A stretch of DNA of 46,462 bases, counting the filler, from Catajapyx aquilonaris (lineage: Eukaryota): assembly GCA_000934665.2 (NCBI GenBank). It is 2 parts of 2 records of this genome, joined end to end, with 100 filler letters (N's around TTAATTAATTAA, not from the genome) between each part and the next. Parts side by side here need not be neighbours in the genome. Positions count along the whole stretch, not along the records: positions 1 to 23,198 come from JYFJ02005727.1; 1 more part is not named here. One strand, written 5' to 3'. The translations under genes were made by a program, and so were the position numbers. Within the stretch, counting starts at the first letter, position 1. Every line of letters begins with the position of its first letter. The notes beneath the pieces were generated by a model. The model was not told where the DNA came from. It ran no database searches and saw only the letters and a list, made by a program, of their open reading frames with translations. This document shows positions 1 through 43,867 of the stretch, piece after piece.

Positions 1-308
1 TCCCTCTCCCGCCAGGAGGCAACGAGTATGCTCAATTCCATCGCGTCAAAAGGATGGTCACACAAGTCAGTCACTCTGAATTATTTACTCTTGATATCGG
101 GAGGTTTTATGAAAACTTCTCTCACATCCGATTCAGTACGTGTAAAGTATGTCCATTGAGTCAATGCCACTCAATTTCTCAACCCAGTCTTACGACCAGC
201 TATGCTCTATTTCTTAGTTGTCACTCCGCGAGCCCTCTCATTCAATTTTTTCATTACCATTGTCTTCCTCATTGCAGGTTATGCCAAATTTTGGCTACGG
301 GTGCGCTA

Positions 309-309
<1 letters not shown>

Positions 310-365
<56 letters not shown>

Positions 366-3933: not shown

Positions 3934-9555
<5,622 letters not shown>

Positions 9556-12500: not shown

Positions 12501-14920
12501 AATGCCTGCCTCCCGGCGGTAACATTCTGGCAGCAGTGTCTGTAGTTGGGAACAGGTCAGATATTTGGATATAAAATGTGGGTGATATTATGGGATGATG
12601 GCAAGACGTAATGATTTAGAAAAAGTGAAAAAAAAGGGAAACAAGGGGGAAAAAGACATTTGTAACCATGGAAGTGGTCAGTTTGCTCAAATTTGTGGTG
12701 ACAATACATGAATGCGCCCTATTATACCCAGTTTAAATGTGTACAAGTCACACACATCAGTTCTGCTTGTGAGAATCCAGGCAATTTGATTGGGAAACAA
12801 TTTATTTTCTTTGATTTTCAACTAAGGGGTTTTAGAAGTGTTATCCCCCGGACCAAGTGTTAATTTTTTGAAATTATCAGTGCTGTTATCTTCTTTGTAT
12901 GGCTAAATGGTGTAAACAGGAAGAGAGAGAAACTTTTGAATGATCATGTGAGAAACTGGCATGCTTTGAATCCAGGACCATTGTAAATAACGGTTTTGTC
13001 AAAATGTAGGCTGGTGTGTTCTGCTTGTGCTAGAAGAAATGAAACCGCAAACTGGACTCTTTTTTGCGAAAAAAAATAATTCCGATTGTGTAAAAGAAAA
13101 TTGTATCGAAGGTCAACATGGTTGCCACAAGTGAGAAGTCTAAGCCACTTCCTCAGAAAGAAAGAGCATGCAGTACAACTCGGTTATGTCGACAAGTATA
13201 TGCAGGTGAATGTGTTGTTAATGTGGCTTTCATTCTGGGACCAAACTCCCCCTACTTGCTGCGGCAAATGCCGCATCAGAGGTTGATATAATCGAGTTGT
13301 ATCGACCCTGAAAGAGTGTCATTGCTCTGACTCGTCTTCCTTATAACACTAAATCTTTTTGATTTTTTTAAAACCCCCTTCCCCTCACGCGGCACCCAAC
13401 TCTACAAGAAGCAAATCAAATGTTGACGATCTGGGTTGCATGCAATAGGCCCAAGGCACTAAGTTGCATGATTGGCATGACCAGACCAAAGGTGCATTGG
13501 GACCTTATTGAGACATGAAAAGGAGCGACCAAAAAATGCAAATTGAAATGTGGTGCTGCGTGCAAGCACGTGGAGTGGTACTTTTTGTCGTACCGGAAGC
13601 ACGTGCGTGCGCACGGATTACGAGAGGGTGCTCACGATTTTTCTTGGGAGAAACGCAAAACTGTGTTTGCAGTGACAATACAGATGTAACCTTGTGAACG
13701 TACAATTAATTGCTTTTACCATTCCCCCTCGGTCTTGCACAATTTCCCTTCTTGCATTAAGTGTTTGCCACGACAAAAAGTACTTTATCCTCTAACACTT
13801 GATCCAGGCGTTTGTATGTAGGTACAAGTCCTGCTTTTAGTACCAATTATGCGTGTGAATAATGTCAATGTTTTCAAACGATTATGAACGCATGTGTAAA
13901 AGAATGTTACTGCGACTTTTACAAAGTTTTACTAAATCCATGTGTTGACACGGGTATGATTGCCTTGACATGTGTGCACAAGCAGTAGCAGTGCTACCGC
14001 TCGGTTTTCATGGGAAGACCCTCCTTTTTCTGCCAGCTCCAAACCATTCAGCTTCATGAAAAGCTGGATGGTGTCAATGTGAATGGGTGTAATATTTTGC
14101 AATTGTAGAGTGAGAGCAAGAAACTGCCAAACATGAGTTTATTATACCAAATAATTCCCCATAGTTCCAACTCTAGGGATAGTATTCATGACTTAATGAC
14201 AACAGCATGATAATCTCGATTGTGGCCAGAGCTTCTCATCTTTTCATGGAATGTGTTTTTTTTCCAGCATTTTTTGAAGTCAACTTTTTGGACATGTATA
14301 AAATATACTGTATTATACTGGTATGTGCTTTTCCTTTTGTGGTTGTCATTTGTTAATTTGTAGCAAGTGAGGGAGGGAGTAGTTCCCAATATGATTACTT
14401 TTGTACAATGCTGTATGCCCACTACACACACGTGCAAGTGAGCCTGCATTGGTTTTCCGGATCTTGAATGATACTCATTTCAGGTCATCAGCTGATTATT
14501 CCAGGTGCAGTATGTTAGATATTCAACACGTACTGTATAGTCTATCTACTTAATCTTGCAACTCCATACCATATACTTGCCAGTAAACGTTGTGGTTGAT
14601 GTAGTACATCTTGTACCACGTTGCATGTCAACATAACTTAATGGAATACTAGCAGTTGTAAGATGGATATGAGACAATAGTAAATGGTGGCTATAAAATA
14701 CATGGTTGGAAAGACGTTACTCAGCCCTGTTGAGCTGTCTCATTATAGTTTCATGTAATTAAATGCCGATGTTTAAAATCGTTACATCATTTGACCTTTG
14801 ACCTCTTTTTTATTCTAAAACTTATTTTCAATGTGCATAAAAATATGCACCCAGAAAGCTGACAACTTGGTTTTTATTTTGAGGCACTAATAAAGTATGG
14901 ATGTCCTCCTATGCATTGCT
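9556..14920 (+). other. Probable long 3'UTR of Galphaq
   Basis: No recognisable MITEs or spliced ORFs for ~5.3 kb after the stop, unlike the flanking introns. First canonical AATAAA I found is at 14889-14894 (ATTAAA variants near 11613 and 14758). Confidence 0.5.
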
Positions 14921-18634: not shown

Positions 18635-18811
18635 TCACTTGTCATCAGTGACATTTCTTGCACGAATGTCAGGAGACTCATCATCAGATGTAGTAGGGCC
18701 ATTTAGTTCTGCCTTCTTATTAGCACTCTTCTCTTCTGACTTTCCAAATACGACCTTCCAATCATCCAATCTTCCTGGAACTTCACCTTTCTTTTCCCTT
18801 CCTAAAATGGG
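18635..18811 (-). CDS. Probable terminal exon of ARID gene (PILGREKKGEVPGRLDDWKVVFGK...DDK*)
   Basis: minus strand cattgcag|CCC acceptor in phase with AAG|gcatgt donor; charged protein-like sequence. Confidence 0.55.
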   Translation of the reverse strand, partial: PILGREKKGEVPGRLDDWKVVFGKSEEKSANKKAELNGPTTSDDESPDIRARNVTDDK

Positions 18812-20573
18812 CTGCAATGGAGACAACACTTGACAAGTTATCAAATGCTCAGAAGTTTGACTCTGATTCTGTTACGCTCCACCTGTTCTGATATTGAACT
18901 GCAAATACCACCCCTTTTTTCCTGACTCATGGTTGTACTTGTCGTTTATTCAAATTGGCTCAGAACACTGCAATGTTAGATCAGGTGGAACATGCCATAA
19001 CATTAACCTATGTGGTAGAAGTGCTAGGTGCACATGCCTTGTTTTTCGGGCGACGTCCTGATTCCCTCTCTCCACCACCACCACACTGATGGCGAAAGTC
19101 CTCGTAACTCAGTAAATACCTGTAATACCAAAATATATTGTCAATTCAAATATTCTGACCCGCCATCCATCAAATTTCCAGGAAACAGAAAACATCACCT
19201 TTTATAAGCCAACTTGACCTGATTTGCAACGGAGATTGATGGTTGGCTAATATCCATTTCATCGGCTACCTGTACCCACTGAGTGTGGCTGGTGACCTTG
19301 TTGTAGCCACCGAGCTTTTTGACTACCTGAAATGGTAGATCACTGAAGTTACTTGGACACACTGACATTTGGAAATTGCCCTCACCTTAAAGAGCTTGTA
19401 GAGCTCAATATCATTACCACTTATAGTCGGAAGTTTCTTGATAGGTGTCTCCCTACTTTCCAAGAATTCCTCAAGTTGCTTGTCAAATTGATCCTTCTCT
19501 GCCTGCGCCTTAAGAACGATTATAAAATATTACACACTTCTTAAAAGCTTGTAAATATGAACAGCTTTGCTGAACACCTCAGTTTTTCTGAATAGCAAAG
19601 AAGAAGTGCATCTCAAATGAACTCAATTTCAAATAAATGGGTAAATTTTATTAAATCCCTGTAGACAAGTCTCTTCTGCAGATTATTACACCAGAAAGTA
19701 ATACCATGTCTGCCACAAGAGACCATATTTGTGTAATACAGGTTGTGGTGCAAACTGAACCCCTTTGTCTCTTCCCTTCCATTTAATGCTGTCTCCATGA
19801 ATATTGCCCATATTTTTTGGGGCCCTTTCCGGATGTGCCTGTATTCCACTGGTTACACTTGATTAGGCATATTCTTAGCCAATCAATGCAGAAACACACA
19901 CACAGGTTGAGTTTTTCTAGGTGGATTACCTAGAAAAAGTCAACCTTACTGCTCTGTGCAGATGCATCATTTATCGAAAGTGTGGCAGCTTATAAGGTCC
20001 CAGCGAGAAATCAATTTGCTGTTGTGTACCATTCTCTTGTTTTGGTATGTTATGACACTGACCAAGGTGGAGAAGAATCAGTATGCTGCAAGTTTCTCAC
20101 AAGGAGAAATTACATAATGCATTTTGAATATTGTCAGCCTATTTCTAGAAGGGGGAGAAAATTTTCTCTTGCATTTTTCATTACATAAAACATTAATTAT
20201 ACCATGAAGTGATGGGATGTGTGAGTGTAACAGAGCCAAGGCACACACAGCTGAGCTATGGAAAGTGAGTCTTATGCTGCTTCATAACATCAAGGGATAA
20301 ATTTAGCTCCTTCCATTGCTTATTCCCTGCTGGAAGTGTACACTGGAGTCGGGGGCGAAGTGATTACCCCCTAAAGTTTTGGCCACTTTATCCTGGTCTT
20401 GAAGCAACCCTTCTCACAAGCCCCACGTTGAGCAGGTGTGTGTGTGTGTGAAGGGTTGCTTCAAGACTAGGATAAAGTGGCCAAAACAATTTGAGACCCA
20501 TAGTACCTAACACAAATACTACAAATGTCAAATTTATTGTGCTACAGGCCAACTGGAATAACTTTGTGGTGTA

Positions 20574-20635
<62 letters not shown>

Positions 20636-21583
20636 CCACCAAACCTTGCATCAGAGAATTATTTACTACGTATTACTCAGTGAAATTTTTTGGCATTCCC
20701 ACCCTTCCACTAATTTTATTTAAATGACTTATGATAAAATTCATTATTATAAAATAGTTCCATGTCATGTGAGGATTATGAACCTAGCTGGGCAATTTAA
20801 TTGTAGGGAACACCATGATCCTGATTGTTGTTTTCCACAGGGTATGCCAGATATTATGTTGAAAGGTTTTGCTGCAATGTGATAGGCTTGATGGTGTGCA
20901 TGCATGTATGGGTGGAAGTTTGTGGTGCAGCTGAACCATGCACTGCCAATCAGTTACCAGATGGATTGATCCAGCAATTTCTAGGTTCCAAATTCTCGCA
21001 AAATCCATCATGAAAGTTCCAGCCAAATCCATCGGTTACTATAGTATGATAGTTGTAGCAAAACACGTCAATTTCTAGGTTCCAAATCTTATTACAATCT
21101 CTCATTCTAGACATGATGGCCTGACAGATCCACCATGGTATGGTGCCAGAAACCATCAAGCTTGTTTCAAAACCATTGGAGGTGGGATCTATCATGTTAC
21201 CCATATAAATAAGTAACGAATGCAAGGCAGTCTGGTGCAAGAGGATTTTGCAAAGCCATATGGGTCTTGTTATTCTCACACCAGAGACGCACAACTGCCC
21301 ATACTTATAATTCTATGAAACAATCACAGGGGTAATCACTTCGGTACTCCGGTGTACACCTGGGAGTGGTACTCCCTGGTACTCCTCAGGCACCTCACTC
21401 TTTATTACTCCGTAGTACTCCTTGAATTTGGTACTCCAGTGTACACTTTTCAGTCGAGTGATTACCCCCTTGACCTAGGCCTGGCATTTCCCCACCCCCA
21501 ATTCGTTCCAGAAGTGTGCCAAGTCCGAACGACTGAGTGTACCAACTGTATGTGTTCAGTTCTTGCGAATATTTCCTTACCAT
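18635..21583 (-). CDS. Small ARID-domain protein (ARID4/hat-trick-like domain only); exons 21581-21583 (ATG), 19386-19508, 19199-19326, 19038-19119, 18635-18811 (alternative stop at 19008 if the GC donor is not used)
   Basis: Spliced translation M-AQAEKDQFDKQLEEFLESRETPIKKLPTISGNDIELYKLFK-VVKKLGGYNKVTSHTQWVQVADEMDISQPSISVANQVKLAYKR-YLLSYEDFRHQCG... carries the ARID signature (F..L..F...R.TPI...P......LY.LF..V...GGY..VT....W..V...M..........K.AY..YL..YE). The central introns are GT-AG, 59 and 79 nt. First and last exon assignments are less certain. Confidence 0.85.
19008..19119 (-). CDS. ARID gene exon (YLLSYEDF); ends at GC donor 19038 or stop at 19008
   Basis: minus strand ttacag|GTATTTA; phase 2 matches the previous exon. 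Confidence 0.85.
19199..19326 (-). CDS. ARID gene exon (LGGY...W core)
   Basis: minus strand tttcag|GTAGTC...AAAAG|gtgatg. Confidence 0.9.
19386..19508 (-). CDS. ARID gene exon (N-terminal helices of ARID)
   Basis: minus strand cttaag|GCGCAG...TTTAAG|gtgagg; an in-frame alternative CAG acceptor lies 6 nt inside. Confidence 0.88.
20376..20487. repeat. Hairpin, 38 bp arms with 1 mismatch, in ARID gene intron 1
   Basis: GTTTTGGCCACTTTATCCTGGTCTTGAAGCAACCCTTC / GAAGGGTTGCTTCAAGACTAGGATAAAGTGGCCAAAAC. Confidence 0.85.
20574..20633. repeat. (ATT)n microsatellite
   Basis: direct reading. Confidence 0.95.
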
Positions 21584-21659
21584 CGCTCCTGCAGAAAAGA
21601 CGAACCAATGGAGACTGGACCGACGCTAGGTTATCTCAATAAGGATCAAGAGCAACCAT

Positions 21660-22080
21660 GCCACAGCCCCACAAGCCCCAATGGCGGTTATGGCTGACGT
21701 CACTTCCTAATATAAGCAACTAATACGTTTTGTAACGGCTAAAAGCATGGCTAAAAGTAACCATGCGAGTTGATTCTATGACTCTTCCACCACGCTCTCA
21801 TGGCGCTACCTGCGATTATTATTATTATGGTTGTTGTTGTTATTATTATTAATAACTCCGCCCCCCCCACACCCCCCCGTGGGGCTGCGCCCCACGTGCG
21901 CGCCTTCGGCGCGGTGCCCGTGTCCCGCCTAATCCATCCGGTTACAGAAATCCATCCGTTTACAGAACCCGTGACGTCACGGTCCACAAAGGTATGACGG
22001 TATGAGAATGCGCCCTAGCTGACGTATATGCTGAAAAAAGGAAAAGTGGGGTGGGGGCCAGGGGGAGGAGGTGTAACCAT
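21660..22080. promoter_or_regulatory. Putative bidirectional CpG/GC-rich promoter between the ARID gene and SPEF2
   Basis: Local CpG enrichment; palindromic CRE TGACGTCA at 21695-21702 (followed by CTTCC, an ETS-CRE-like composite) and 21972-21979; GC-box and CACGTG near 21856-21898; lies between two divergent genes. Confidence 0.6.
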
Positions 22081-22371
22081 ATGTGAGCTGAGAGGTCTCC
22101 GGAGATGAGGGTGAATGGGCCATTGTTCTTTCCCGGCTTAACGACAAACAGATGTTCCTTGTGGAGTGGGCAAAAGTCGACTTTTTGCCATCTCGAAAAC
22201 GGCTGGGAATTTTGGCAATTTGAGGACTTTTGGACAATGTATATCGACCGCAAGGAATCCTACGGAATTTCGACCACAGCTCTACGACCTCGGGAAGTGC
22301 GAAATCTTTTCCATCCTATATCCTATATCCTATATCCTCCACGTTTAGGGGCTTTATATATACTTGATATC

Positions 22372-22372
<1 letters not shown>

Positions 22373-22448
<76 letters not shown>
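22373..22448. repeat. (ATT)n microsatellite
   Basis: direct reading. Confidence 0.95.
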
Positions 22449-22449
<1 letters not shown>

Positions 22450-22582
22450 GTGTAGTAGTTAATGTTAAAAGCTTCTACACCAGATTTTGTAATTAACTGG
22501 TTAATCACTTTCTGGAGCACACCATTGTTTTCAGTGACCGATCAGCAGATATTTTATTGATTTAATAATCAATTAATTACTA

Positions 22583-22766
22583 AAGTTGAAACAGGATATA
22601 ACAGTCTTCAAGGGACCATGGAAATCAGTCTGTTATAACCCATGTCTGTTATAGCCGAATAAAAAATCCATATATGGAAGTTTGCCGGGACCGGACTTTC
22701 GAGTCTGTCATAAGCGAAACTGCGAAAGTCTGTTATAGCCGAGGCTGTTGTATCCGGATTCAACTG
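22583..22766. mobile_element. Tc1/pogo-type MITE
   Basis: TA|AAGTTGAAACAGGATATAACAG...CTGTTGTATCCGGATTCAACTG|TA with internal TCTGTTATA repeats. Confidence 0.7.
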
Positions 22767-22997
22767 TAGTTAGTTAATTTCTGGTGCCTTTTGCTTGGTG
22801 ACCAGTATCTCCATCTCAGTTCATCATTTTCACTAGTGACTAACACCTTATTAACCCTGGAACCGTGATGTGCCTGAAAGTTACTTTAAACGTGCCACGG
22901 GGTCTTTTAGGACCCCATGCGATATTTTAATTTTTATTCAAGCAAGATTCCTTCTTCTGCCGCTTCGGAAAATGTCGCTGGCGGTTGACTCGATATA

Positions 22998-23198
22998 CGA
23001 GGGGGAATCAAATGAAAACGATAATTATTTTTTTTACAATTGTTCTACTATAATAATGATTGTGACAACTACACTATTTTTCCACATAGTCCCCTTGGCG
23101 TTCAATGCAAGTGCGCCACGTGGTAGGACGCACCTCAATACCGCGGGAAAAAAATTCTTTCGATTGAGCTCGTAGCCAGTTGTGCACCGCCACTTCCA
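22998..23198 (-). mobile_element. Mariner element 3' end with transposase C-terminal remnant, truncated by an assembly gap
   Basis: TA|CGAGGGG terminus; minus strand 23198-23074 reads EVAVHNWLRAQSKEFFSRGIEVRPTTWRTCIERQGDYVEK*, a typical mariner C-terminus. Confidence 0.88.
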
Positions 23199-23970
23199 NN
23201 NNNNNNNNNNNNNNNNNNNNNNNNNNNNNNNNNNNNNNNNNNTTAATTAATTAANNNNNNNNNNNNNNNNNNNNNNNNNNNNNNNNNNNNNNNNNNNNGT
23301 TCATCTCCACTACATCTTAATTGTGTCACACTTTTGTTCATGTGTGTAGGAGTAGTGGCAGGATAAGTGACCATTTGACATGTCCGTATTCTTAAATAAT
23401 CACAATATATTAATGTGGATCATTATCCCTATACCATGATGATGATGATGATTATCCCTAATGATGGATTTACCCTGCCTGCTACACACCCAATTTGCCT
23501 AGCTCTTGGCAGTGGTGAAAGTTCCTGTAGAGATACTGCCTAAGAGTCTAAGTCCAGTTGCTAACTATAAAACTCATACATTATTCTGCATAAAATTTCA
23601 TTTATATTTAATAACAGTTGTTTAATACTTTTTAAAATCTTGCCTTTGCACCTGACGTTTGAGAGAAACTCAATATATGCAGGTAGTACCAGTACTGTAC
23701 ACTTTCAGTTAGATGTTCATCTACTGACGAGCCTTTGAAAAAGGCATAAATGCACATTCATGGGCATTGTGTCAGGCCAAGTTGCCAGTAGGTCACAACG
23801 TTATTGCTAAAAGTTTTTTCTACTACCAGGCTAATTGTAAAATGCACTAATTCTTCTTTAAGGTTAGACCCATCCTTACAAAAAAATAACTTTGGGATTT
23901 TGTACATGTTGACTTTCCTTGTGGTAGGGACCAGAGGATGAAGGAATGAATATAATATGTCGTTTCTCAG

Positions 23971-24131: not shown

Positions 24132-27100
24132 GTGAGTATCATCTGCAAAACATTAATGCTTGGCCAAATACATTATAAGAATTGTTGGTATTGCCAGAAC
24201 GGCAGAGCCAAGGATCAGGGCCAGCGATATACCTCTGGGGCACAGGATTTCACAGCCATCCCATTTTAAAGAGAATGAGGCTGAGGAGACAGCAGAACTC
24301 ATTGAGCAATTTGACAATAGCTGCAGAGAAAGGGATCGATTGGGAAATCTGGATGAGGTTTGTTTATATTCACATATTCTGGGTATCACGAAGTCAGCTC
24401 ACATCTCCACTTGTGCCGATGCCATGGACACTTATGAGCTGGCTACTCCCAGCTGTGAGCTGGTGTGAAGTTTGTTAACTTGTGGAAGCTCCTTGGGAAG
24501 CTCTGTAGTGGTTAGGTGTTCATGTTGCCATTCCGGAGAGCCTGTATTTGTTTCCTGGTATTGACCATTTCAACCTGGATTTTTTCTGATTTTCTGTAGT
24601 TGCTTCTAGAACAATTCTAGGATGGTCTCCAGATTCTGTTCCAGAATTGCCACATCCACTTTCTTTCTCCCTTCTCCTTTTTCCTTGAATTTGTATCATA
24701 CAGAATCATTGGCCATCGAAGACTTGTTTGAAATATAAAAGGCACTTCTGGGTGGCTGATGACCTGATCCACCTTAAAGGTAACCAACTATTTTCTGGAA
24801 ATTGGGTGGTTTAGTGCCGACAGAACACATGGAATTCAAAACTCATGTGAACATCTGTACACTCTTCAGGTCATGATAATTTGTGACAAGTGTGCAGGGA
24901 TATTTATTTCCCTAAAGGTGAAGGCAGTTTTTTTATGTGGAGGTAGGAACTAGCATCAAGTGGTATTGTAGTGGTTTGTTGTGATTTATGTGAATAACAT
25001 TTATTTCCATCAAACATTCTTCGATTGATAACTTGACCTTGCACTGTACATGACCATTTCCAATATTTATAGCAAGAGCCTGTAGTATGAGGTCATATCA
25101 GAGTGTGTAGGAGCCTATGTCCTTTTACCATTTTTGTATGAAAGGTCTCATTTCAATACCTTCTTTATCCAGGGGTTACTGAAGACATTGCCAAGGGACG
25201 CACGTGAGAAAGTGCAGTTTTCTCATTTTGCCAACATTCTAAGGTCTCGCATGGAAGAGGATGCTGCATCTCAGCGAGAGAGGAGTCAGATCAGAAAGCA
25301 GGTCATTGGTGAATCAATTTCAGTGAAGCGGACAATTCAGAATGATCGGATGGAGAATGACATTATAGAAAACTTATTGAGGCAGTCTTCTTTTGAGAAG
25401 AGGATAGTAGGGAAGCTCATGCAGGTTCGCAGAGAAAAGCAAATTATTATTGAGAATAGGCTTGAGAGGGAGCGGCAGTTTGCCCGCCTCAGGGAAGAGG
25501 AATTCCATGCTGCAATGGACAGGGAAAGAGTAAGTAGAATTACCACACCTATAATATTATATTGGCGCAAGCAGTCAATGTGCTTTTGCTACATGTGAGT
25601 GCAATACATAACTTTTTGTACATTTTTGTTTTTCTGTAACAGACCATGATTGAGAGTGAACTTGCTGATGAAAATAGTGACTTGCGGCGCCAAGAGGAAC
25701 TCCATAAGAGATTGCTTGAAGAGAGGCGGTTAAGAAAGTCTGAATATAACTATGTCATGTGTAGGAAAATCATGGATGACGTGGTGGACATGAGTGTGCG
25801 GATTGCAGAGATTGAGATTGTCCTTGGACGGTTAGTCAATGCGTAAAAGTTAAAGAGTTCATGCATAATTCACTTTTTGCTTAGCCATTTAAAATTCAGT
25901 AAAACTTCTATAAGTCGAATGTCCATGGGACAGGAAAAAAACTTCGAGTTTTAGAAGATTCGAGTTAGAGAAGTTTGGATTTTTTAAAGCGCAGAACTTG
26001 ATAAGGAAGCCTACCTTTATATCCAGTGACTAAAGGTGTTCAAACCTTAAAAATAACTGTCACTGTCACACTTACAATGTTCCTCGTTGTTTTGTTGTAA
26101 AAAAAATGTCCATTATGGACGTTAGCCTACTCTTAGATTCAAGGATCCAGTTGTTCAATCGAGTCAAACACTTCTTTCGGTCTGGTAGACAGAGATCAGG
26201 AAATTGAGCCTTTCTGAACATGTGGTACTCTAGACCCTTCAGCTGGGAAATGAGAAAATTTTTCGTACTCGCCAACATGAACTTCGACTTAGGGAGACTG
26301 AAAATCCCATTGTAAGGCCCTGCTTGCACTTCGAGTTATGGAGAACTTCGAGTTTTAGAAATTCGAGTTAGGGAAGTTTATTTCCTATTATTTTACATTG
26401 TGACCAACCAACCTCACAATTTTCTTCAACTTATAGAGAACTTCGACTTAGGGAAGTTCGACTTATAGAAGTTTTATTGTGTTTGTAACATCTCTTTAAA
26501 AGAAATAAATGCTTTCCCATTATGATGGTATTGTGGGAGAACTTTATTCATTGCTTACTCTTTTTGTGGAACCAAAACAGTAAGATTACAGACTTTATCA
26601 TTGCTCAGGACTTAAATTTGTCCTAGTTCAAAGTTTTGTGGTATATGAACAAGGCTGTTGATTATTTGAATTGAACTAAAATGAGAAGTGTAGATGGTTA
26701 ATGACATTTCTTGACTGTGCAACTAAATTCTAATTCTCTTGCGTATGAATCACATGGTGCAAAAGAATTACCTCTGAAGTTATATTGCCTAAAAGACTTT
26801 CACTCTGCATATCAGACTTTGTTATTTACAAATCACCCGCCATATTTTCTTGTGGGGTACAGACCAGCTCCTAGACGCCTTCTGGATGAATGGTTGGAAC
26901 TCTTCCTGAAGGAGCTACCACTTTTTGAGCAGGTGGAGGATCTGAGTGAAATAGTGACTCAGCAGAAGAGCAAGGAAGAAATAGAATTGGAACGTCAGAG
27001 GCAGGAGGTCCTTAACAATCAAGAATTACTTTGGTACATGGTAAGATTGAACATATTTGTGTGCATATGTAGCCAAACCTACCAAAAGGATGATAGAACC

Positions 27101-30100
27101 TGCATATGATTAAGTAAAACCATTTCCCCAACCCAGAGGGTAGGGATTTCAGTGCTTCTCAGGTTTCCTGTAACAATATAGATATAATACACAGTAAAAG
27201 TCATTTAGAGACTTGATAATGAAATATAATTCTAAATTGGTCAGCTAGGGTATGCAGTCGACAGAGATTATTCCATACAGGAATGCCACTTTTGGAAACA
27301 TATGGGGAAACTTGCCATAGTCATGGCAGAGGGGACTGTTTTCAGGGTGTTTTTTGTTATCAAGGTATGCTCAGGGCGGCTCAGGGTTGGTAGTGCAAAG
27401 ATTGCCCAGCTGGCAGATCACTCTGGGTAATAACCACGTTTATCAGTCTATTTGGGCTTGTCTATGAGTCACGAGTTATACAGGTAGTCCATTGCTCTGT
27501 TTGTACCAAAAAATTGAATTGAATGCAGTATAATTTATTGTCTTTGAGGAATTTTACTATGCAAAAATTGTGACTAAAAGTGAACTTCTGTGGTGTTTGT
27601 TGGGAAAGAATTAATTCTGAATACTCTGCAAGAACCTCTTCTGAGTTCCTCTGCCTCATGAATGCAGATGTGGATTGTGAGAAACTGAATTCCCTTGCCG
27701 AGCAAGAAGGGCCTGACTTTAATTTTAGCAATTATTATGTTGTGCTTGTGGAGCTGTCCAAAACAAAACCACTGTACATGAACTTCAGGGTAGGATGTGA
27801 CAATGAAAACATTAAAAAATATATGCCTTATGTAGAAGTGTTGTTAGAGAACGTTTACTCAGATGTGAGTCAGTTATGCACTCACCTTATTCTATTTTTG
27901 TCATCTGTGAGCCAGTGTCAAAGTTTGCTGAAGACAGAATAATTACAGAATTGTAAAATTCTTCCAAGTGCTACTTATCAATTAAAGATACAAACCTTTA
28001 AAGGAGTACCACCTGACCCTATGCCATTATCATCTAATCGTCATGTTTTCAAGTCGTATAATAATAATAATGGATACAAGCAGGTTACAAGACACCTTGT
28101 TGTTGAGTAATGGATGACAATAGTGATAAATAGCTGCTGGTGAAGGAATTGCAGAAAGTTCTTGAAAATTATACCTCGACTCAATCCAATCTTCTTCTTT
28201 TTTCATATTCTTTCCAATCCCACTTCATCCTGCAATCTACCTAAGGTGGACCCTATTCGATGGTACAACAATGGTGACATCAATGTCATCCACCCTGAAG
28301 ACCTGGAGAATGTTCCATATCCTAACAAGGCCCTGGGCCATGCCATCAACCGCATCCTCAAGCTGAAGTACCCACCTCCTCCTTCTGATGCCCCCATCCA
28401 GATCCCAGAATTTCCAATGAGAGTGCTCATAGCTGGGTTGAATGAGGATAAGCTCTTATTACAGCTTAAGGAATGCCTGAGCGGTAACTTGTAGAAATGA
28501 CAAAGAGGGGGGAATAATATTTTCATTTAAATCCACACCTCAGACATTGTGTTAGTACAATTATTGTTGCATATCTCTTGTAAATAAGACTATGCAGTTG
28601 GGGTGTTGAACTTGATAAGAGGAATTGTACAGGGGGACAGGGCTGGATCGAGGGGAGGGGGGGTATCTGCCCTGGGCGGCGAGAAGGTGGGGGCAGCATG
28701 TCTTGTCCCTGGAAATGAACACGTGCACATTGCACTGTTCTATGTGTTATTTTCCATTTTGCGGTTGCAACCCCAAATTTGGGGTCGCGTGGAAGGGTAA
28801 CTAGTTATTTGTGCAAATTGATTATATCTCTCTGGAAAATTTGCCCGTAAACGAGATGTGTTAATTTAGCGAGTATTGTAGTTAACTACCACCAAGGGGG
28901 TAGGGTTGAATTGGAAGTGGTGGTCGCGAATTTTAGGCATCTATTTTCTGGGGTTGCCAACGAAAAAGATTAGGAAGCATGGCTCTAGTCTAGAATGATC
29001 AAAAACCCGCAAATGTTGACAACACTGTGGAATTGTTTGTGAAGACAAAAGTATACAGCCACCTAAGCAGAACTCCTTTCAAGTGCAATATGCAGATCTG
29101 AAATAGTTATTAACCTTTTTGTCATGCAGAAAGCTTTCATGCTAACCCTTCTGTTGTGTATTGTCCGGAACAATGACAAGACGTGTGTTCATTACGAAAA
29201 TATCTGCAAATAGTGTACTATTTGGACTGGTATCGTAGTCAAAACTGTAGTGCATCTTAGGGACTCTTTCCAAGAGATGCAAAACAACGCTGAAGATGAT
29301 ATTTCTTTCTGGCAGAAAAAAATCTTCAGCTTGTGTGACCTAGAACACACGCAAAAATTTTGCCTGTTGCGGACTTCCTCACCAGCCAACCCCCCCCCCC
29401 CCCCANNNNNNNNNNNNNNNNNNNNNNNNNNNNNNNNNNNNNNNNNNNNNNNNNNNNNNNNNNNNNNNNNNNNNNNNNNNNNNNNNNNNNNNNNNNNNNN
29501 NNNNNNNNNNNNNNNNNNNNNNNNNNNNNNNNNNNNNNNNNNNNNNNNNNNNNNNNNCCCCCCCCCCCATTTCGTAGATCCGGCACTGCAGGGGGATGGG
29601 TACTGTTAAAATGTATATAACATTTATGTAATAGTAGGGTAACAAATTGACATTTAAAATAGAACAGCGGAATTTTAAAATATGCACTCAATTTTTATGG
29701 CAAGAGTTCATGCAGCATTCTACTTAATTTCTTTCAATACTTGAGCAACATTAACATTCATGCTGATAGTCCTAGTTATGAAAGAAGGAATTGGACTTTA
29801 CATTCAAAATTTCCACTACTCCTGTTATTTTTCTGGCTCTTCATCTTAGACTTTGGTGAAATTCATTTCCTGAGTGTGCAGTCCTTGGTGGCAAGTGCTC
29901 TGGAGGCATACAAGGAAGAGCAGCATTTACTGACTCCTGGACAGCTGTCTGTGATAGAAGTGGAGTCCAACATAGAGGAAGAGGAAGAGGTAGAGGCAGA
30001 TGCAGAGGCAGAGGCAGAAGAAGAAAATATTGAAGAGAATGCAGAAGTGATAGCCAATGAAGCTGTAGAGCCTTCTGAGGAAGTGCCCCCTGAAGTAAAA

Positions 30101-36100: not shown

Positions 36101-39100
36101 AAAGAAGCATATCGGATAGACCTAACATCCATATTACTAGCATGCAATTGGAGAAACAGATGGAAAAAATTTATTTATGTTGAAGTCAGACAATTTTAAG
36201 TGATGTTCTGTGATTTCTGTATTCTTACTTATGATCCAAAATTAATATGACAGACCAGCTAGCATGAAGAAGGTATCATCACACAAGAATGTGAGCGTGG
36301 AAGAGCAAGCGTTTACAGAGGCTCCACAACCTGGGGATCCAGGCTTCATCTATGTAGACAAGAACCTTACTGAAGATGTAGTTCAGGTTTGTATCACCAT
36401 ATTCTTGAACTTGTATGTTATCTTGCACATAACCTTTCATATCCGCTCTAAGGAAATTGTGCAAATACCATTCTGCCACCTGTCAAATACTCTAACAGAG
36501 AATGATATAACATCATTCTCATTTGTTTTTAAATCAATTGCTTGATTTGATAGAAAAAGAAAAGTTTCTGAAATATCACTGAACTCTTCTGGTAAAAATC
36601 AGTGCTGAGTTCCTCTTCTTAAACCCAATGTTTTAGGATAGTTTAATTTAATTATTGATTTGATAATTTTCTAGCTCATGTCCAGTTCCTGGGAGAATTT
36701 GGAGCGAAACTACATGCGTGCCATGAAAGGCCTGTTTTTCTCCTTGCGTGTGCATGTGGATAGCGTGGCCAAATATCTTTACACCACTCGTCAGAAGTAT
36801 ATGGCATACCTAAGGGCTCCTGACAAGAAACAGGACTTGTTGAACACTTTTCAGGAAGAGTTTGCAAACATCCCAGCAGATATGAGAGGTGACTCAGAAG
36901 TGAAGGCAGAATGGCACATGAGAATTAAGACACTAGTGGATAACCTCTGCAGTGAGATAGAGCAAGGAAAGGGTGATGCTGAGAAAGAGAGAAGTGGCAT
37001 TATGGAGCATGGATGGTTCATAGATGAATTTGGCATAATAACCAATATCTTCCTGACCATGCTGCAGGTTACTATTCCTATTTTTTAAAACAAATTTTTA
37101 AATATATGCGATGAGCACTCTAAGTACAATCTGTGAGTTGTTCCCTGAAGTGCATTGCCTTACCGTGTGAGGTTACTTGCAGTCCTCGCTATGTTTCATG
37201 TTCTGTATGTTATAAATATATCTACCGTTTATTGGGGTTGCGTTCAAGTACGGATTTCTTTCCTGTTTTTTGTCAAGTATATAGCATTATGATGAATTAC
37301 TACCACATCATACAGTAACATGTAGTATTATGGTATTACATTGCATGAGAAAATGTTCATAATGAAATGCATTGATAAATTATGTTAAGGAGGATGGCAT
37401 TTGAAGTCATAAATTTTTAAACGCCACAATGTGTTTGCTATTTTAATGATGTCCAGAATTGATGGGACAGTAACAGAATCACAATGGTGACCGGAAGATA
37501 TAACATAGTGTTGATGACAATGACTTTTCTTCTGGGTTTTTCAGGTGGAGAGTGATCGCTACTATGACACCATCCAGATCCTTCACGATTACTTCAGTTC
37601 TAGCATTGAACTTGAGCCTGGGTTAGTTCGTACTGAACCAGCCACAATTAATCAATTGGATAAGATGATTCGGGGTCATGCCCGTACATCCACTGGATCC
37701 AGTCCCTCCAGTGGAAATCGGAAGTCATCCCAACAGGAAGGGCGGTCAGGGCCCCACAGGCATTCCAGAGGTGGATCAGTGTCAGTAGTGGGTCCAGAAT
37801 ACACTGTTATGACTTCCCAGTTCAAAGAGGCTATCCATGAAGCTACAGAGCAGTCATTTCGCTGTCAGAGGACACTGGTGGTTGAAGAGGTTGAAATTTT
37901 AAAGAAGCTTGTGCCCTTCAGTCTTGTAGAAAAACGAAGTAAGGAGGAGGCTTTAAAGGGTGGAGAGAAGGGTGCCAAGGGTGGGCCTGGATCAACTGGA
38001 GCAGGGGGTGCTAGAAGGGGATCCACAAAGGGAAAGAATGGTTCAATCGATGACACTACAGAAGCAGGAAAGGAGAGGATCAACCTCGGAATTCAATGGG
38101 ATTCTGCCATTAATTTTGAAAGTATGTATTTGTGAGTGTTTACATTCTCTTGTACATGTTAAGGTGTGTCTTAAATGAAGAATGAGGTGAGGAGTTAGAA
38201 AAGTACTGAATTATGATTTTATTTGAAGGCTATGTAGACTTGTCATCTCACTCTGGGTAGTTTAACCACTTGTCTGGGGTCTGAGATTTCCTTTCCATCA
38301 TGGGAAGTTTCACTTCATGTTCACCTGAAGATAATTATGTGAATATAAAAGTGAGTTACATTGCTGTATTAAACTGTTTCAATTATTTCAGCTGACCGAT
38401 TTGTGTATATGCTGAACCTGATTAGGCATAAAGCATACTTGGAAATGGACAAAATACAGAAAGACATGTCAGCGATGTTCATGGACATGTATGAGGAGCT
38501 GGGAGGAAGATACAAGAGAGACATGAATTGGTGAGGAAATGTTTTGTAACAGGATCTTGTGGAGCTTAGACTACTAACTGTAGTCTCAGTTACTTTCTAT
38601 TTCTTGCACACTCTTCATGTTGGAATGGCATTCCAAAATTCATGTCTATATTTCTATGCTCTTTCACCCTGTTCCATTTTTCTCAACAGTGTTGAGCGCT
38701 TGACACACTTATTCCAGTACGCCACTGAGAAAGAAGTTTGCCTGCAGGGATGGGTAGTCCTAGAGCGCGGTGACTTCTACTTAACCCCTGGAGATGATTT
38801 GGCTTCATGTGGTCCTGTTGACTTCAGTGTTGATGACCGTCATCCAGTTCATGATGACATGTTCTCAGTCAAGCAGTTAGCTATTCTGACCAGCAAGTTT
38901 CTGCAAGCAGCACCACATGGGCTAGTCCCCCTGACAGCATTTGTGTATATGATGCAGGACCTGTCATTATTGGCCAAGATGATGGATGAAGAGTACCATG
39001 AGGTGGCCCTCCTTCCAACATCATGGCTTGGGATGCTTCCTGATATAATGGAGCAGTTTATTCTCCGAGCTCTGGGAAATCCACACTTAGTCAACTGGAG

Positions 39101-42100
39101 GGAATTCATCATTGGTTTGTTGGAAATTTTCTATTCCGCTGATTTTTTTTTTCTTTCATCTTAGTTTTTGTGGAGAACTGTCACTGTCAAGAGTAGTAAA
39201 CTTTCAGGGAACTGCTGCTGTTGTAATCATGCAAGAGGCCCAAAAGTTGCAAAGAATGTCAGACCATACTAAACTTGACAAATCTTAAAGTTTTCAAGTT
39301 TACAATATTGCTTTATTTTGTTAATGCAAAGGTACCAAATAAGTGTCAATAATCAATAACTTATCTAGTCAACCTCTTGGGTCCCAGTTGCCTGGCACAT
39401 GGGAGAAAAGAGCCCTGGAGCCACTGTAATGGGGAAGTAGCCTTGGTCTGGGATTTTGGATTTTTGTTCATAACTAGCTAGCCCATGCCTGTAAACATAC
39501 ATTCCACCACTCTGTTGCATCAAAATGACATTACAGGATAAATTACGGCACATTTAAAAGTGCCTTCAAAATTGGCGGGAAAAACGCCGCAGCCAATCGA
39601 AAGGGTACACTGAAATGCCTGGTTGACTGCGAGATATGAGGAATTTGACTTTGAATTAACCGCGGACACGACGGAAAGCATTCGCCAGGCGGCTGTAGGC
39701 CATCGAGGTGGAGAAAAGGGGCCTTCATGTGCCGAATTCGAGTGACAGATAATTCCTACCAGTTGGCACCACTGTCAGCACAGGAGCGGCTTGAGCGACC
39801 TGGAATAAATACGCGCCCCGGCCGCTATCTTGCTCACGGAATGGGACGGTTGCTAACAGCAGCGAAGCATTTTACAACAATGACGGGGCGCGTTCTATAA
39901 CACCATTTTTGCGTTCATTTCACTTCGCGTGACGTCAACATTTTCTAGGGAAACAGTGACGTCACCATTTCCCTACATAAAAACCCCAATTACTCCGGAA
40001 CGGAAACTGATATCTTAAAATGGAATATGCCAAAAAAATCCAAAAAATATGGGCGAATTTATTATGTAGTTTCCAAAATGAAGGCTACTTCCCCATTCTG
40101 CTTCCTAATTTATAGTTGTGAGGAGCAAGTAGAAATCTCAAATTGCTTAATCTATGCCTTATGCTCTTTCCTGTCCACCTATTCAGCCAACATGGACATC
40201 CCGTACCCATCCCAAATAGATCTTTTGCGTCTGGCTCTACAGATGAATGACTCTGCAGAGACTCCGGACTCCCGCCTTGTGACGAAGGATAATTACGACC
40301 TTATTAACTTGTGGTTTCCACATCATGATCTCTGCCATCCAGACCACATCCGTCTATCCCAGATCAAAGAACTAATCTTTTACATGTTTGAAACTGTTGA
40401 TAACAAGGTGGACTATGAGACCATGCTGTTGCATTTCTGCAAGGATTATGATGCTGTGGATGGTGTTGGTAAAGCTCTGGCCCTCTTGTCTGGACTCTAC
40501 CTGTATGCAGGTAAATGTGAACCTCATTCTGCTGTGCTGAAAATTACTTTCATCATTTTGCCAATGGGAAGATCAAGTTATTAACCTCCACTCTCAGAAT
40601 ATTGCCTGAAGAACTTGCACACCAAAACTAGTACACGTGATCAGAGTGGTATGGTACAATTAAATGGTAGAATTTTCAGTACAACTGAGGCTTGGCATTG
40701 ACATACATTTATGATACTGCTGTGTGTTTTCAAAATGTTTACATTTATTTGTGCGTAATATTTTACCTTTGTTATAATAATTTCATGTTCAAGTTTTATG
40801 ATTTCATAACTATTTGGAGGAATGCATCTTTTTTATGTTGAAATTAAGTGGCTTTAACTTGGAGTTTGTGAAGCCTTGTTGTTAAGGATACATACTTGCT
40901 TCATGAGCAGGAGTGCCTGAAGTAATGTCAGCTGGCACAGAGGCTACTGCAGAAGAAAAGGAGGAGGAAGAACTTATGAGGCTGCAGTTAGAGAAGGAAG
41001 GAGAAGTTAATCAAGAGGAGGATGCGAACGTGGAAGAGAAGCTCTCCATCCATTCTCTTTCTGGGAGTGATGATAGTTCTCGTATTGACACAAGGAAATC
41101 TTCAAAGCTTTCTAAGCAACCTTCCCGTGCTCTTAGCAAAAGAGTCTCATCAATGGCGACTGTTGATCTTGTCACTGTTAAGCCTAACGAAGGAGGGAAA
41201 ACCCCATTCAACACACCTGCAAGTAGGGTAAGCCATGCCAATATTTTTATTCACATGCACTTTTAGGATTGGAGTGGTGCAGAATGTCATGGTGCAGGTC
41301 TGCAGGTGGCACAACATGGATGAATGGACTGTTTGGGCAAGGTGTTGCCACTGCATCACTCTGCCTCCTTCATATACTAACATAGTCATGGGTATGAAGG
41401 AAAGGGACAACAGTCTGAAATCATCATGTTGGCCATGGGATCTCTCCATATCCTGGTGGTTTTTTGCCCCTTCTACTTAAGAGGGATTGCACACCACTGT
41501 AGTCGCTGATAGATGTGCGAAGTATGTAGATAAATTGCATGTCAGGCTTAAGAGGGATTCTGTTGCCTGTGCTGCATTTCATTAATCTATCCAATATATT
41601 GCATAATTATGTGATGAGTAATTGACCAAATTTGATCCAGGCCACTAGCTCTTTGATGTCACTTCTCTTCTGTGTAGACAAATCATCTTAACTATAATAC
41701 ATATACAATACAGTGTATACTTTTTAAATACCACATGTTGTTTCTTACAACCGTCCTCTACTGATAATGACCAACGTTGAGGATATGTGATGATTGCATG
41801 GAATTTGTTCAGGGCAATTTAATGTGCTGTTGTCAGGGGCCTTTCAGAAGTGTTGTGGTAATGGATTTATGTAATAGAGGCACTTTAGGTTCATTATTAG
41901 TAGTTACCTAACTTGTTGACCACTGACAAATAGGCAATGGAATCTTTTCAGGATTCACATTACATATACCCATCACTGAGAGTGAGTGAACTTTTGAGGA
42001 GGTTGGAAACTGCCTGCAGGTCAGTAATCCTGGTTCATGTCCTCTGTAATTTTTTCCAATTTTTTATTGGTGTTAATATTGTATTAACATTTTATAATCA

Positions 42101-42286: not shown

Positions 42287-42366
<80 letters not shown>

Positions 42367-43867
42367 TATTCTTGGTAAGAGTAATTGGGCTCCTTCCCAT
42401 TCAAACCCAGCAATTAAGACGCAAAAAACCTTTTGCTTGAATTTTGGTCACCATAAAGGAAGGAATTCAAGTCATCTCTGGAAAGGTGCCATTAGATTCC
42501 ATTAAATTATTAACAGGTGTTATTTCTAAAGATTACTTTAAAAACCAGAGTTTCCATGCATTGTGATGGTGTTTTAAAAGCAACTAGAAAGTGAGGCTGG
42601 AAGGAATGTGATGGTACCAATAAAGCTTAAAATTTAAGTGTTCATGCAAATGAATTTAAAGTTTTATTCTGCCCAAAACACTTTGTTTTTTGAACCAGAA
42701 TGTTTAATTGACGCTAGTTCTGAATCACACATTTTAATTAGATGCATTTAGATAAAATCAAAATGAAGCAATTTTACCAGATGTGCATCATACAGTAAGT
42801 ACAACTTGTTAGCTTAATAATATCTCATTATTCTACAAATTTCCTAGGTTGGACTTACAGAAGTGTACAAGCGCCATGGCGAAGGCTACTTCTTGGACCC
42901 CATCCCCTTCAACCAACTGGTGCGAATTCCTTTCGTAAGAAACTTAGTGACACAGGACAACCGATTTGTCATAATGGTGAGTCTGGCGATGGTCACAGCT
43001 GATAATATTCAGAAATGTGGATTTGCAAAGGTCTGAAATATTTGGTGTGACTAACAAGCTGGGTTTAAAAGAAGTTTATTCAGTGGTGGCACAGGCTAGT
43101 GCAGTGGTTTCCAACCTGGGGGTCACGGTCAGGGTCGCAGGGGGTTGCGAGCCTTTGTTCAACTTTTTTTTCCCCAATTTCTGTATAAAATTGGACAATT
43201 TTTGCGGCTGTACAGAGTGTATATTTTATGGAAATGGGTCAGTAGTAGAAGGGGCTGGGGGGGGGGGGGNGGGGGGGGGGGTGTCGCACATTTATGAAAA
43301 CATGTTTAGGGGGGTAAAAGGTTGGAAACCACTGTGGAGAACTTCGAGTTAGGGAAGTTTATTTCCTATTATTTTACATTGTGACCAACCAAGCTCTTAA
43401 TTTTCTTCGCCTTATAGAGAACTTCGACTTAGGGAAGTTCGACTTATAGAGTTTCACTGTATTTTGATTAACTGCATCAAAATGGGTGCATTTGTTAATT
43501 TTTCTCCCCCCATATTGTGAATCTGCAAGGTGTCCAGAGAGCTTATCCCTGTGCTGTGTTTCTTTCAAATAGCGCATGTTTCATAATTTTGATCACAAGC
43601 CATTAGATTTTTGTATACTGGTACAGTACATGAGAAGCTGCCTCAAGTGTCTTTCTGAATGCTAATTTAGGCCTACCGCCTCTAGTCCACCCTGTTCCTG
43701 CTTTAGTACAAGACTAGTGCTGACCAGGCTTTGTGCAGGGATTAACCAATATTTATGAATGACACTGACAAAGTATGCAACCTAAGTGACACTTTTTTTT
43801 TTCCTTCAAAAATTAGGACTGGAAGACTGCTCTACAGGAACTACGAAATGGGTGTCCTCCAGTATGA
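23971..43867 (+). CDS. SPEF2: Sperm flagellar protein 2 homolog, 23 phase-consistent exons (~1760 aa); 5' end/CH domain unresolved
   Basis: Motifs matching remembered SPEF2 sequence: EKRIVGKLMQVRREKQIIIENRLERERQFARLREEEFHAAMDRE; EWLELF; GDFPLTLRQVVNLEQTLT (adenylate-kinase-like); PQPGDPGFIYVD; LRAPDKKQDLLNTFQEEFANIPADMRGDSEVKAEWHMRI; VNWREFII; VDYETMLLHFC. All introns GT-AG and in phase, total 5286 nt. Confidence 0.92.
24198..24357 (+). CDS. SPEF2: SPEF2 exon
   Basis: gccag|AACG...GATGAG|gtttgt. Confidence 0.75.
24502..24790 (+). mobile_element. Degenerate tRNA-derived SINE
   Basis: A-box-like TAGTGGTTAGG, decayed B-box, LINE-like tail GCTGATGACC...AACCAAC. Confidence 0.5.
25173..25529 (+). 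CDS. SPEF2: SPEF2 exon (coiled coil)
   Basis: atccag|GGG...GAAAGA|gtaagt. Confidence 0.92.
25643..25830 (+). CDS. SPEF2: SPEF2 exon
   Basis: aacag|ACCATG...GGACG|gttagt. Confidence 0.9.
25897..26479 (+). mobile_element. Tc1/pogo-type MITE family A, copy 1
   Basis: CAGTAAAACTTCTATAAGTCGAA...TTCGACTTATAGAAGTTTTATTG; internal TTCGAGTTA repeats; sibling copies at 34034 and 43336. Confidence 0.88.
26863..27040 (+). CDS. SPEF2: SPEF2 exon
   Basis: tacag|ACCAGCT...TACATG|gtaaga. Confidence 0.9.
28246..28483 (+). CDS. SPEF2: SPEF2 exon (start of adenylate-kinase-like region)
   Basis: cctaag|GTGGAC...AGCG|gtaact. Confidence 0.85.
29850..30200 (+). CDS. SPEF2: SPEF2 exon (Glu-rich insert)
   Basis: cttag|ACTTT...AAGG|gtaaat. 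Confidence 0.88.
30895..31120 (+). CDS. SPEF2: SPEF2 exon
   Basis: ttccag|AGGTA...CTGTG|gtcagt; LSPMAYLGKKCKDSLTMGGSVDDDVLAELV. Confidence 0.85.
31399..31626. mobile_element. Foldback MITE
   Basis: Perfect 20-bp TIR TAGTTTAATATAAAAGTCTC plus imperfect inner arms. Confidence 0.8.
31712..32260 (-). mobile_element. Internally deleted mariner element with transposase remnant
   Basis: TA|TGAGGGGTGTCC...GGACACCCCTCA|TA, ~90 bp TIRs; minus strand TKMVFMVWKNPSTLQPKNVKTRSSVKKLM resembles the mariner catalytic-domain segment. Confidence 0.85.
32369..32715. mobile_element. Tigger/pogo-type MITE
   Basis: CATTGGAACCCCGATT...AATCGGGGTTCTACTG with TTATCCG repeats. Confidence 0.75.
32852..33063 (+). CDS. 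SPEF2: SPEF2 exon (DFPLT)
   Basis: taccag|CAAC...GATG|gtcagt. Confidence 0.85.
33566..33754. repeat. Foldback hairpin, ~82 bp arms
   Basis: TTTTACTGCAGTGCATGGGAA...TGTGGCCTTGAC / GTCAAGGCCACA...TTCCCATGCACTGCAGTAAAA. Confidence 0.85.
33808..33974 (+). CDS. SPEF2: SPEF2 exon
   Basis: ctgcag|ATCCA...AAGGGG|gtaagt. Confidence 0.85.
34034..35041 (-). mobile_element. MITE family A, copy 2 (inverted), interrupted by a nested MITE
   Basis: Reverse complement of 25897-26479 on either side of 34499-34936. Confidence 0.88.
34499..34936. mobile_element. Nested Tc1/mariner-type MITE
   Basis: TA|CAGGGTGTATCAAAACTC...GAGTTTTGATACACCCTG|TA, ~115 bp imperfect TIRs. Confidence 0.9.
35318..35523 (+). CDS. 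SPEF2: SPEF2 exon
   Basis: ttcag|AAAAGC...GGATG|gtaggt. Confidence 0.8.
35812..35925 (+). CDS. SPEF2: SPEF2 exon
   Basis: ttgaaag|GTTC...CGGAG|gtctgg; needed to avoid a TG|A stop on direct splicing to 36254. Confidence 0.7.
36254..36386 (+). CDS. SPEF2: SPEF2 exon
   Basis: gacag|ACCA...GTTCAG|gtttgt. Confidence 0.85.
36675..37067 (+). CDS. SPEF2: SPEF2 exon
   Basis: ttctag|CTCATG...CTGCAG|gttact. Confidence 0.93.
37545..38121 (+). CDS. SPEF2: SPEF2 exon
   Basis: tttcag|GTGGAG...GAAA|gtatgt. Confidence 0.9.
38392..38530 (+). CDS. SPEF2: SPEF2 exon
   Basis: tttcag|CTGAC...AATTG|gtgagg. Confidence 0.88.
38690..39114 (+). CDS. SPEF2: SPEF2 exon
   Basis: caacag|TGTT...ATTG|gtttgt. Confidence 0.9.
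39428..40097. mobile_element. CpG-rich TIR element in a SPEF2 intron
   Basis: Perfect 17-bp inverted termini AATGGGGAAGTAGCCTT / AAGGCTACTTCCCCATT; CpG-rich interior; no clear TSD. Confidence 0.65.
40187..40510 (+). CDS. SPEF2: SPEF2 exon (C-terminal EF-hand-like region)
   Basis: attcag|CCAAC...GCAG|gtaaat. Confidence 0.9.
40911..41227 (+). CDS. SPEF2: SPEF2 exon
   Basis: gagcag|GAGTG...AGTAGG|gtaagc. Confidence 0.82.
41952..42019 (+). CDS. SPEF2: SPEF2 exon
   Basis: tttcag|GATTCA...TGCAG|gtcagt. Confidence 0.75.
42102..42273 (+). CDS. SPEF2: SPEF2 exon
   Basis: aatcag|GTGT...ATCAAG|gttctc. Confidence 0.78.
42288..42365. repeat. (ATT)n microsatellite
   Basis: direct reading; begins ~15 nt after a donor site. 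Confidence 0.95.
42848..42976 (+). CDS. SPEF2: SPEF2 exon
   Basis: tcctag|GTTGGA...ATAATG|gtgagt. Confidence 0.82.
43102..43334. mobile_element. hAT-type MITE
   Basis: CAGTGGTTTCCAACCT...AGGTTGGAAACCACTG perfect TIR; TSD not preserved. Confidence 0.8.
43336..43459 (+). mobile_element. MITE family A, truncated copy 3
   Basis: Matches the right end of 25897-26479, ends CACTG|TA. Confidence 0.8.
43817..43867 (+). CDS. SPEF2: SPEF2 last coding exon (DWKTALQELRNGCPPV*)
   Basis: aattag|GACTGG...TGA; AATAAA at 43926-43931. Confidence 0.75.
   Translation, partial: DWKTALQELRNGCPPV

Follow-up and report, generated by a model that had tools for sequence, protein, structure and literature searches.

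The 46,462-nucleotide stretch of Catajapyx aquilonaris DNA analyzed here (assembly GCA_000934665.2; two parts joined end to end, hereafter the window) carries three short minus-strand exons, at 19508-19386, 19326-19199 and 19119-19008, that join in phase to encode one complete ARID domain. The domain is closest to those of ARID4 proteins, the other domains of ARID4 are absent from the window, and the sequence has diverged fast. We tentatively interpret the locus as a small independent ARID-only gene with a product of 119-121 amino acids (aa), possibly 170 aa; from the sequence we infer its transcription, its start codon, its maintenance by selection and its function. An original prediction, made from the sequence alone, had proposed a hidden ARID-only microprotein gene at this position.

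Three short exons splice into an intact ARID domain

The three exons, numbered 2 to 4 (Table 1), are separated by two GT-AG introns located exactly where the original prediction had placed them, and they splice into an intact ARID domain as it had claimed. The acceptors closing the two introns read tttcag and attacag, and all three donors and three acceptors of the model are intact. The short introns of the locus also fit an invertebrate.

We compared each piece with the Pfam ARID/BRIGHT family (PF01388; 89 profile positions, gathering cut-off 24.1 bits). The exon-2 piece scored 35.5 bits (E 1.3e-8) and the exon-3 piece 32.7 bits (E 1e-7), so the predicted domain holds in Pfam on both pieces; exon 4 supplies the last positions. 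Because neighboring pieces each exceed the cut-off and are collinear in the profile, the ARID observation is far beyond chance, and the complete domain places the product among the ARID/BRIGHT proteins.

Exon 2 lacks an ATG, and 8 codons before its acceptor the frame meets a stop, so the start codon must come from an upstream exon. The candidate that we adopted ends exon 1 and is followed directly by a donor; with this ATG (21583-21581), the joined open reading frame (ORF) comprises 121 codons and would encode a protein of 13.7 kDa with a calculated pI of 8.9. An in-frame CAG located 6 nucleotides (nt) further into exon 2 offers an alternative acceptor, so the product may be 119 aa long and not 121. 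A 170-aa form that reads on into an optional exon 5 needs a rare GC donor (AAG/GCATGT at 19037-19036, a position counted back from the stop at 19010-19008), which makes it the weaker and less likely model.

The candidate ATG has a G at -3 and, once spliced, a G at +4, and it is one of 3 ATG-to-phase-0-donor candidates with at least 5 of 7 consensus positions on the minus strand between 19509 and 24500. The ATG exon adjoins the longest CpG-rich stretch of the window, a candidate promoter that also has the joint-highest CpG count. The CpG observed/expected ratio is 0.40 for the window as a whole (GpC, 1.02), and its median across 178 segments of 500 nt is 0.33. Two other CpG-rich islands lie at 13251-14000 and 39501-40250. 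Strong CpG depletion with few islands suggests, from base composition, heavy genome methylation that spares promoter-like islands, a notable feature if the organism is an arthropod. We counted the CRE and CCAAT motifs of the island among the gene-like ends of the locus, along with a poly(A) signal beyond the stop codon.

The domain is of ARID4 type, and the rest of ARID4 is missing from the window

We ran an exhaustive HMMER search with the exon-2 piece against 1.84 billion cluster representatives, which returned 13 matches at E of 0.001 or below. According to Pfam, 6 of the 13 carry RBB1NT and ARID, and 4 of those 6 also a Tudor-knot; another 4 are ARID4-like fragments of 78-125 aa with an ARID4-type acidic lead-in. 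The remainder comprise one protein with three ARID3-like domains and two low-complexity repeats that have no ARID domain. By tblastn, exon 2 shares 54-62% identity with ARID4 proteins. Among solved structures, the exon-2 piece matched ARID4A best (27.7 bits), with Dead ringer next (18.5 bits). The joined product aligns with ARID4 proteins over both junctions, with the frame kept and a one-residue difference in loop length relative to some rows, and it retains an ARID4-type motif that lies beyond the Pfam domain.

A custom ARID4 profile spanning RBB1NT to ARID, built from seven of the matched proteins, scored exon 2 at 44.9 bits, exon 3 at 38.9 bits and exon 4 at 5.5 bits (profile 207-222). In a small tree whose outgroup consisted of ARID3-like rows only, the window ARID fell on the ARID4 side with 100/100 support, without a fixed place inside that side. 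In the ESM Atlas, the exon-3 piece matched generic ARID clusters only (0.84-0.87). By sequence, the domain is thus nearest to ARID4 rather than to ARID1, ARID2, ARID3, ARID5 or JARID, with one dissenting ranking, an ARID5B match of exon 3 that we weigh below. Judged by these comparisons, the ARID domain is derived from the ARID4 type. The nearest relatives are as predicted, ARID4/hat-trick-type proteins with RBB1NT and Tudor-knot (chromobarrel) domains, a result on which the structure ranking, the HMMER and Pfam matches and tblastn agree.

The absence of the remaining ARID4 domains, also anticipated, extends to the whole 46 kb, where tblastn, Pfam and the custom profile revealed no Tudor, RBB1NT or chromobarrel exon. 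Searching both strands by tblastn with all 13 matched proteins, including full-length ARID4s, we recovered the ARID exons only (E 1.7e-17 to 1e-8); the next-best match, at E 0.006, placed a Lys/Ser-rich linker of protein P0012 on 8039-7830. The full-length proteins P0007, P0010, P0012 and P0013 matched the ARID exons alone on either strand, with nothing for Tudor or chromobarrel (Tudor-knot). The R2 region, which recruits Sin3/histone deacetylase (HDAC), was covered by the full-length proteins of this tblastn comparison, and they matched nothing past the ARID exons. When 133 minus-strand ORFs at 11.9-25.1 kb were compared with Pfam, none but the two ARID ORFs exceeded a cut-off.

For RBB1NT/PWWP, nothing was found N-terminal to ARID in the window, and the custom profile gave just a weak, out-of-order candidate downstream. 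The exon-5 ORF ranked 3rd best of 2419 window ORFs against this profile (8.8 bits, E 0.13, profile 91-133), with an alignment that covers the RBB1NT end and the acidic linker and a score reached by 0 of 2000 shuffles. The same ORF matched nothing in Pfam and had no usable ESM Atlas match. As a weak lead, exon 5 may represent a remnant of the RBB1NT end and acidic linker that normally precede ARID in ARID4. If so, a piece that normally lies before ARID would lie after it here, as in tandem-duplication debris.

A candidate partial duplicate of an ARID4-type gene

Three ARID4-like fragments (P0005, P0006 and P0008) depart from the family sequence just after the residue equivalent to the end of exon 2, and a fourth fragment, P0011, ends at the residue equivalent to the end of exon 3. 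We read these breaks as probable gene calls running into introns, and both internal intron positions of the locus thereby appear to be common to canonical ARID4 genes, which would argue for partial duplication at the DNA level and not for retroposition.

We propose that the locus arose when part of an ARID4-type (RBBP1/hat-trick) gene was duplicated at the DNA level, and that it kept only three exons encoding ARID and a short ARID4-specific C-terminal extension. The duplicate would then have gained a first coding exon of a single codon, located at the border of the CpG island, as well as a stop codon followed by a poly(A) signal. We would expect its product to act in the nucleus as an ARID module, contacting either DNA or whichever target the ARID/R1 region has in ARID4; repression by R1 is reportedly SUMO-dependent (Binda et al., 2006). 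PMC8038949 describes ARID4A/B as five-domain proteins in which ARID confers HDAC-independent and R2 HDAC-dependent repression, and PMC12190956 has R1 overlapping ARID. A free ARID module would accordingly retain contact with DNA and perhaps repression of the R1 type. The putative product would have none of the Tudor, PWWP/RBB1NT and chromobarrel readers, nor the Sin3/HDAC-recruiting R2 region, and for this reason it could work as a competitor of full-length ARID4 or as a minimal repressor independent of HDAC. A dominant-negative "microprotein" role is speculation, and the germ-line role that the original prediction also suggested is likewise conjectural.

Fast divergence with an open frame

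The window ARID shares 42-50% identity with ARID4-type domains, which share 44-88% among themselves, or 53-88% when P0001a, the extra copy in protein P0001, is left aside. Its terminal branch measures 1.12 changes per column vs a median of 0.33. We identified 30 residues invariant in seven ARID4-type domains, of which the window ARID keeps 21, whereas leave-one-out counts for canonical ARID4-type members range from 31/34 to 31/31 kept. Among the nine lost residues are three from the post-ARID motif and the Gly of RGTP; the losses fit either a new function or decay. Across ~105 residues aligned to ARID4 rows there is no stop or frame-breaking indel, and the pattern of the fold core (GG, W and the AYKRYL motif) is kept.

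Several of our findings weigh against a functional gene. The losses among invariant residues follow the pattern that relaxed constraint would give, and the intact frame means little if the organism's own ARID4 parent is divergent and the duplication recent. Neither an orthologue nor a close relative of the window ARID emerged from the homologue, HMMER and metagenome searches: a homologue search with the exon-2 piece for longer proteins gave 2 candidates, neither of which scored, one with the exon-3 ORF for near relatives gave zero candidates, and a scan of metagenomes with the 68-aa ORF that spans exon 2 from stop to stop gave 249 pattern matches, 0 of them confirmed. The model itself has unusual features, since a one-codon coding first exon is uncommon and exon 2 follows a weak, disfavored AAG acceptor. 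Compared on its own with solved structures, the exon-3 piece ranked ARID5B top (19.1 bits), with ARID4A not listed. Finally, the N runs at 23.2-23.3 kb could hide exons, a point that concerns the ARID locus and the neighboring SPEF2 gene alike.

The same data bear on a dead partial duplicate, an unprocessed ARID4 pseudogene fragment in which exons and introns of ARID were duplicated together. The open frame, the ATG/GT and the AATAAA would then be leftovers or chance occurrences, and no functional product would be made. We regard such a relic as somewhat unlikely. It would accord with the lost invariant residues, with a branch that is the longest in the tree, and with HMMER and tblastn comparisons in which the nearest relative is no closer than 62% on exon 2; a possible RBB1NT-end vestige lying out of order downstream of ARID would likewise resemble duplication debris. 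In a substitution-only neutral simulation, the frame was still free of stops in 24% of runs at 0.1 substitutions per site, which a relic would allow, but in 8.6% at 0.2 and 3.8% at 0.3; indels and splice-site loss would lower these percentages further, and we count the low values in favor of a maintained frame. Moreover, the gene-like ends were picked post hoc, and each such element is common by itself, as in the case of 7 AATAAA/ATTAAA sites in 2.1 kb. Decay fits poorly, however, with three donors and three acceptors that are all intact, with a frame that has stayed open on so long a branch, with the conserved fold core, and with a CpG-rich stretch, the longest of the window, placed exactly at the proposed 5' end.

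Neighboring genes and other features of the window

Plus-strand genes lie on both sides of the locus, a G-alpha exon and a multi-exon SPEF2 (sperm flagellar protein 2) gene (Table 1). The first visible SPEF2 exon aligns to residues 234-333 of solved SPEF2, so that ~230 N-terminal residues (CH domain) are unaccounted for in the window. We did not find the 5' exons on the plus strand, either among ORFs of 20 aa or more at 12.5-25.1 kb or among those of 30 aa or more at 10.4-25.1 kb, nor in two PDB look-ups, and a homologue search with the SPEF2 exon for longer proteins yielded 467 candidates, none of which scored. The ARID locus may be either head-to-head with SPEF2 or nested inside a SPEF2 intron.

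This arrangement matters for another explanation, in which the three exons belong to a longer gene, either the organism's own divergent ARID4 or a chimeric gene, whose other exons lie outside the window, in gaps, or are too lineage-specific to recognize. Exon 2 indeed needs splicing to something upstream, N runs occupy 23199-23298, exon 5 is open over 58 codons, and the missing start of SPEF2 indicates that unrecognized or missing exons do occur in this stretch. Nevertheless, we consider a longer gene improbable: neither strand of the 46 kb gave a Tudor, RBB1NT or Tudor-knot signal, and a long ARID4 gene would have to span the plus-strand genes that bracket the locus. The frame is, in addition, stopped shortly upstream of exon 2, and exon 4 is closed by a TAG and then an AATAAA.

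We rejected a processed (retro) pseudogene, as the original prediction had argued from the introns, because two GT-AG introns interrupt the ARID domain at positions apparently common to ARID4 genes. Capture by a transposon was dropped, as the ARID exons are not flanked by repeats, whether inverted or direct.

Table 1. Features of the ARID locus and of the rest of the window. Positions count along the whole window; a slash marks an exon-intron boundary; MITE, miniature inverted-repeat transposable element.
Feature	Position	Strand	Details
Candidate start codon, last 3 bases of exon 1	21581-21583	-	Context ggagcgATG/GTAAGG; model only
Intron 1	19509-21580	-	2072 nt, rich in repeats
Exon 2	19386-19508	-	41 codons; ARID profile positions 1-38; alternative in-frame acceptor gives exon start 19502
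Intron 2	19327-19385	-	59 nt, phase 0, GT-AG; donor aag/GTGAGG
Exon 3	19199-19326	-	128 nt; ARID profile positions 40-82
Intron 3	19120-19198	-	79 nt, phase 2, GT-AG; donor aag/GTGATG
Exon 4	19008-19119	-	ARID end, ARID4-type extension (YLLSYEDF...G), Gly-rich and basic tail, TAG 19010-19008
AATAAA poly(A) signal	18945-18950	-	58 nt past TAG stop
Optional exon 5	18635-18811	-	58-codon open frame (frame 0), acceptor ttgcag, TGA 18637-18635
CpG-rich island, candidate promoter	21501-23000	.	Observed/expected 0.90-1.07; directly upstream of ATG exon
TGACGTCA motifs in island	21702, 21979		
Inverted CCAAT (ATTGG) in island	21682, 21609		
Hairpin repeat in intron 1, MITE-like	20376-20487		43-nt arms, 95% complementary
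MITE-like short inverted-repeat elements in intron 1	21320-21475, 20330-20370		One with ends reading GGGGTAATCAC
Long (ATT)n / (AAT)n microsatellites	~20575-20632 (intron 1), 22372-22450, 42290-42370, 307-365		
G-alpha exon	5091-5339	+	Pfam G-alpha 84.2 bits, profile positions 182-244 of 333
SPEF2 (sperm flagellar protein 2), multi-exon	25086 to ~42400	+	D5 25086-25598; SPEF2_C 38550-40584
N runs, taken as assembly gaps	23199-23242, 23255-23298, 29406-29557		First pair between ARID locus and SPEF2
125-codon open frame	43977-44354	-	Single hydrophobic, transmembrane-like stretch; no Pfam match

Discussion

If the small ARID-only gene that we favor is expressed and conserved, it would constitute a natural experiment in which the ARID/R1 module is isolated from the histone readers and the Sin3/HDAC arm of ARID4, as well as a new gene born through partial duplication of a chromatin regulator. 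If the locus is a relic, it would be unremarkable debris of duplication, in an animal genome that is large and rich in repeats. The result has no bearing on any long-standing open question.

A more specific version can be imagined, which we offer as a rather unlikely one. The ARID/R1 part of ARID4 would have been freed by partial duplication, in a lineage-specific manner, and placed under a CpG-island promoter of its own, maybe shared head-to-head with SPEF2, so that its expression would be testis-biased. The product would be a fast-evolving, free chromatin protein that competes with Sin3-bound ARID4 or represses without HDAC. Such a gene would amount to a natural separation-of-function allele of ARID4.

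Comparison with known systems

The closest known proteins are ARID4A and ARID4B (RBBP1 and RBBP1L1) and Drosophila hat-trick, a type represented in our comparisons by P0007, P0010 and P0013 (1100-2592 aa) and by PDB entries 6l87 and 7v8n. The window product resembles them in the sequence type of its ARID, with the extension that follows the Pfam domain (YL.S.EDF...G) included and 42-50% identity over the domain, and both internal intron positions are apparently common to the two. It differs from them in having no Tudor, RBB1NT/PWWP or chromobarrel/Tudor-knot region and apparently no C-terminal R2 region, in its length (~121 aa vs more than 1000), in the change of 9 of 30 family-invariant residues, and in a branch about three times longer.

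A second point of comparison is P0001, an ARID4-type protein of 662 aa in which Pfam finds RBB1NT followed by two ARID domains. It shows that the ARID unit of ARID4-type genes can be duplicated, as we propose for our locus, and again the extra copy, here P0001a, has diverged more (44-54% identity, 31/40 invariant residues kept). However, the extra ARID of P0001 stays within the parent protein, whereas the ARID of the window stands alone at another locus. Another protein, P0004, has three near-identical ARID3-like domains. The repeats in P0001 and P0004 may be either natural tandem ARID duplications or artefacts of assembly or gene calling.

MicroProteins, such as the Id proteins and plant LITTLE ZIPPER, are small single-domain derivatives of larger regulators, and the classical ones keep a protein-protein interaction domain with which they poison dimers. 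Term searches of the literature gave no report of an ARID microprotein. If the ARID-only gene is real, its product would resemble microProteins in being small and descended from a multidomain regulator. Unlike the classical examples, it would keep a DNA-binding/R1 module, so any interference would take the form of competition for DNA or for the partners of ARID.

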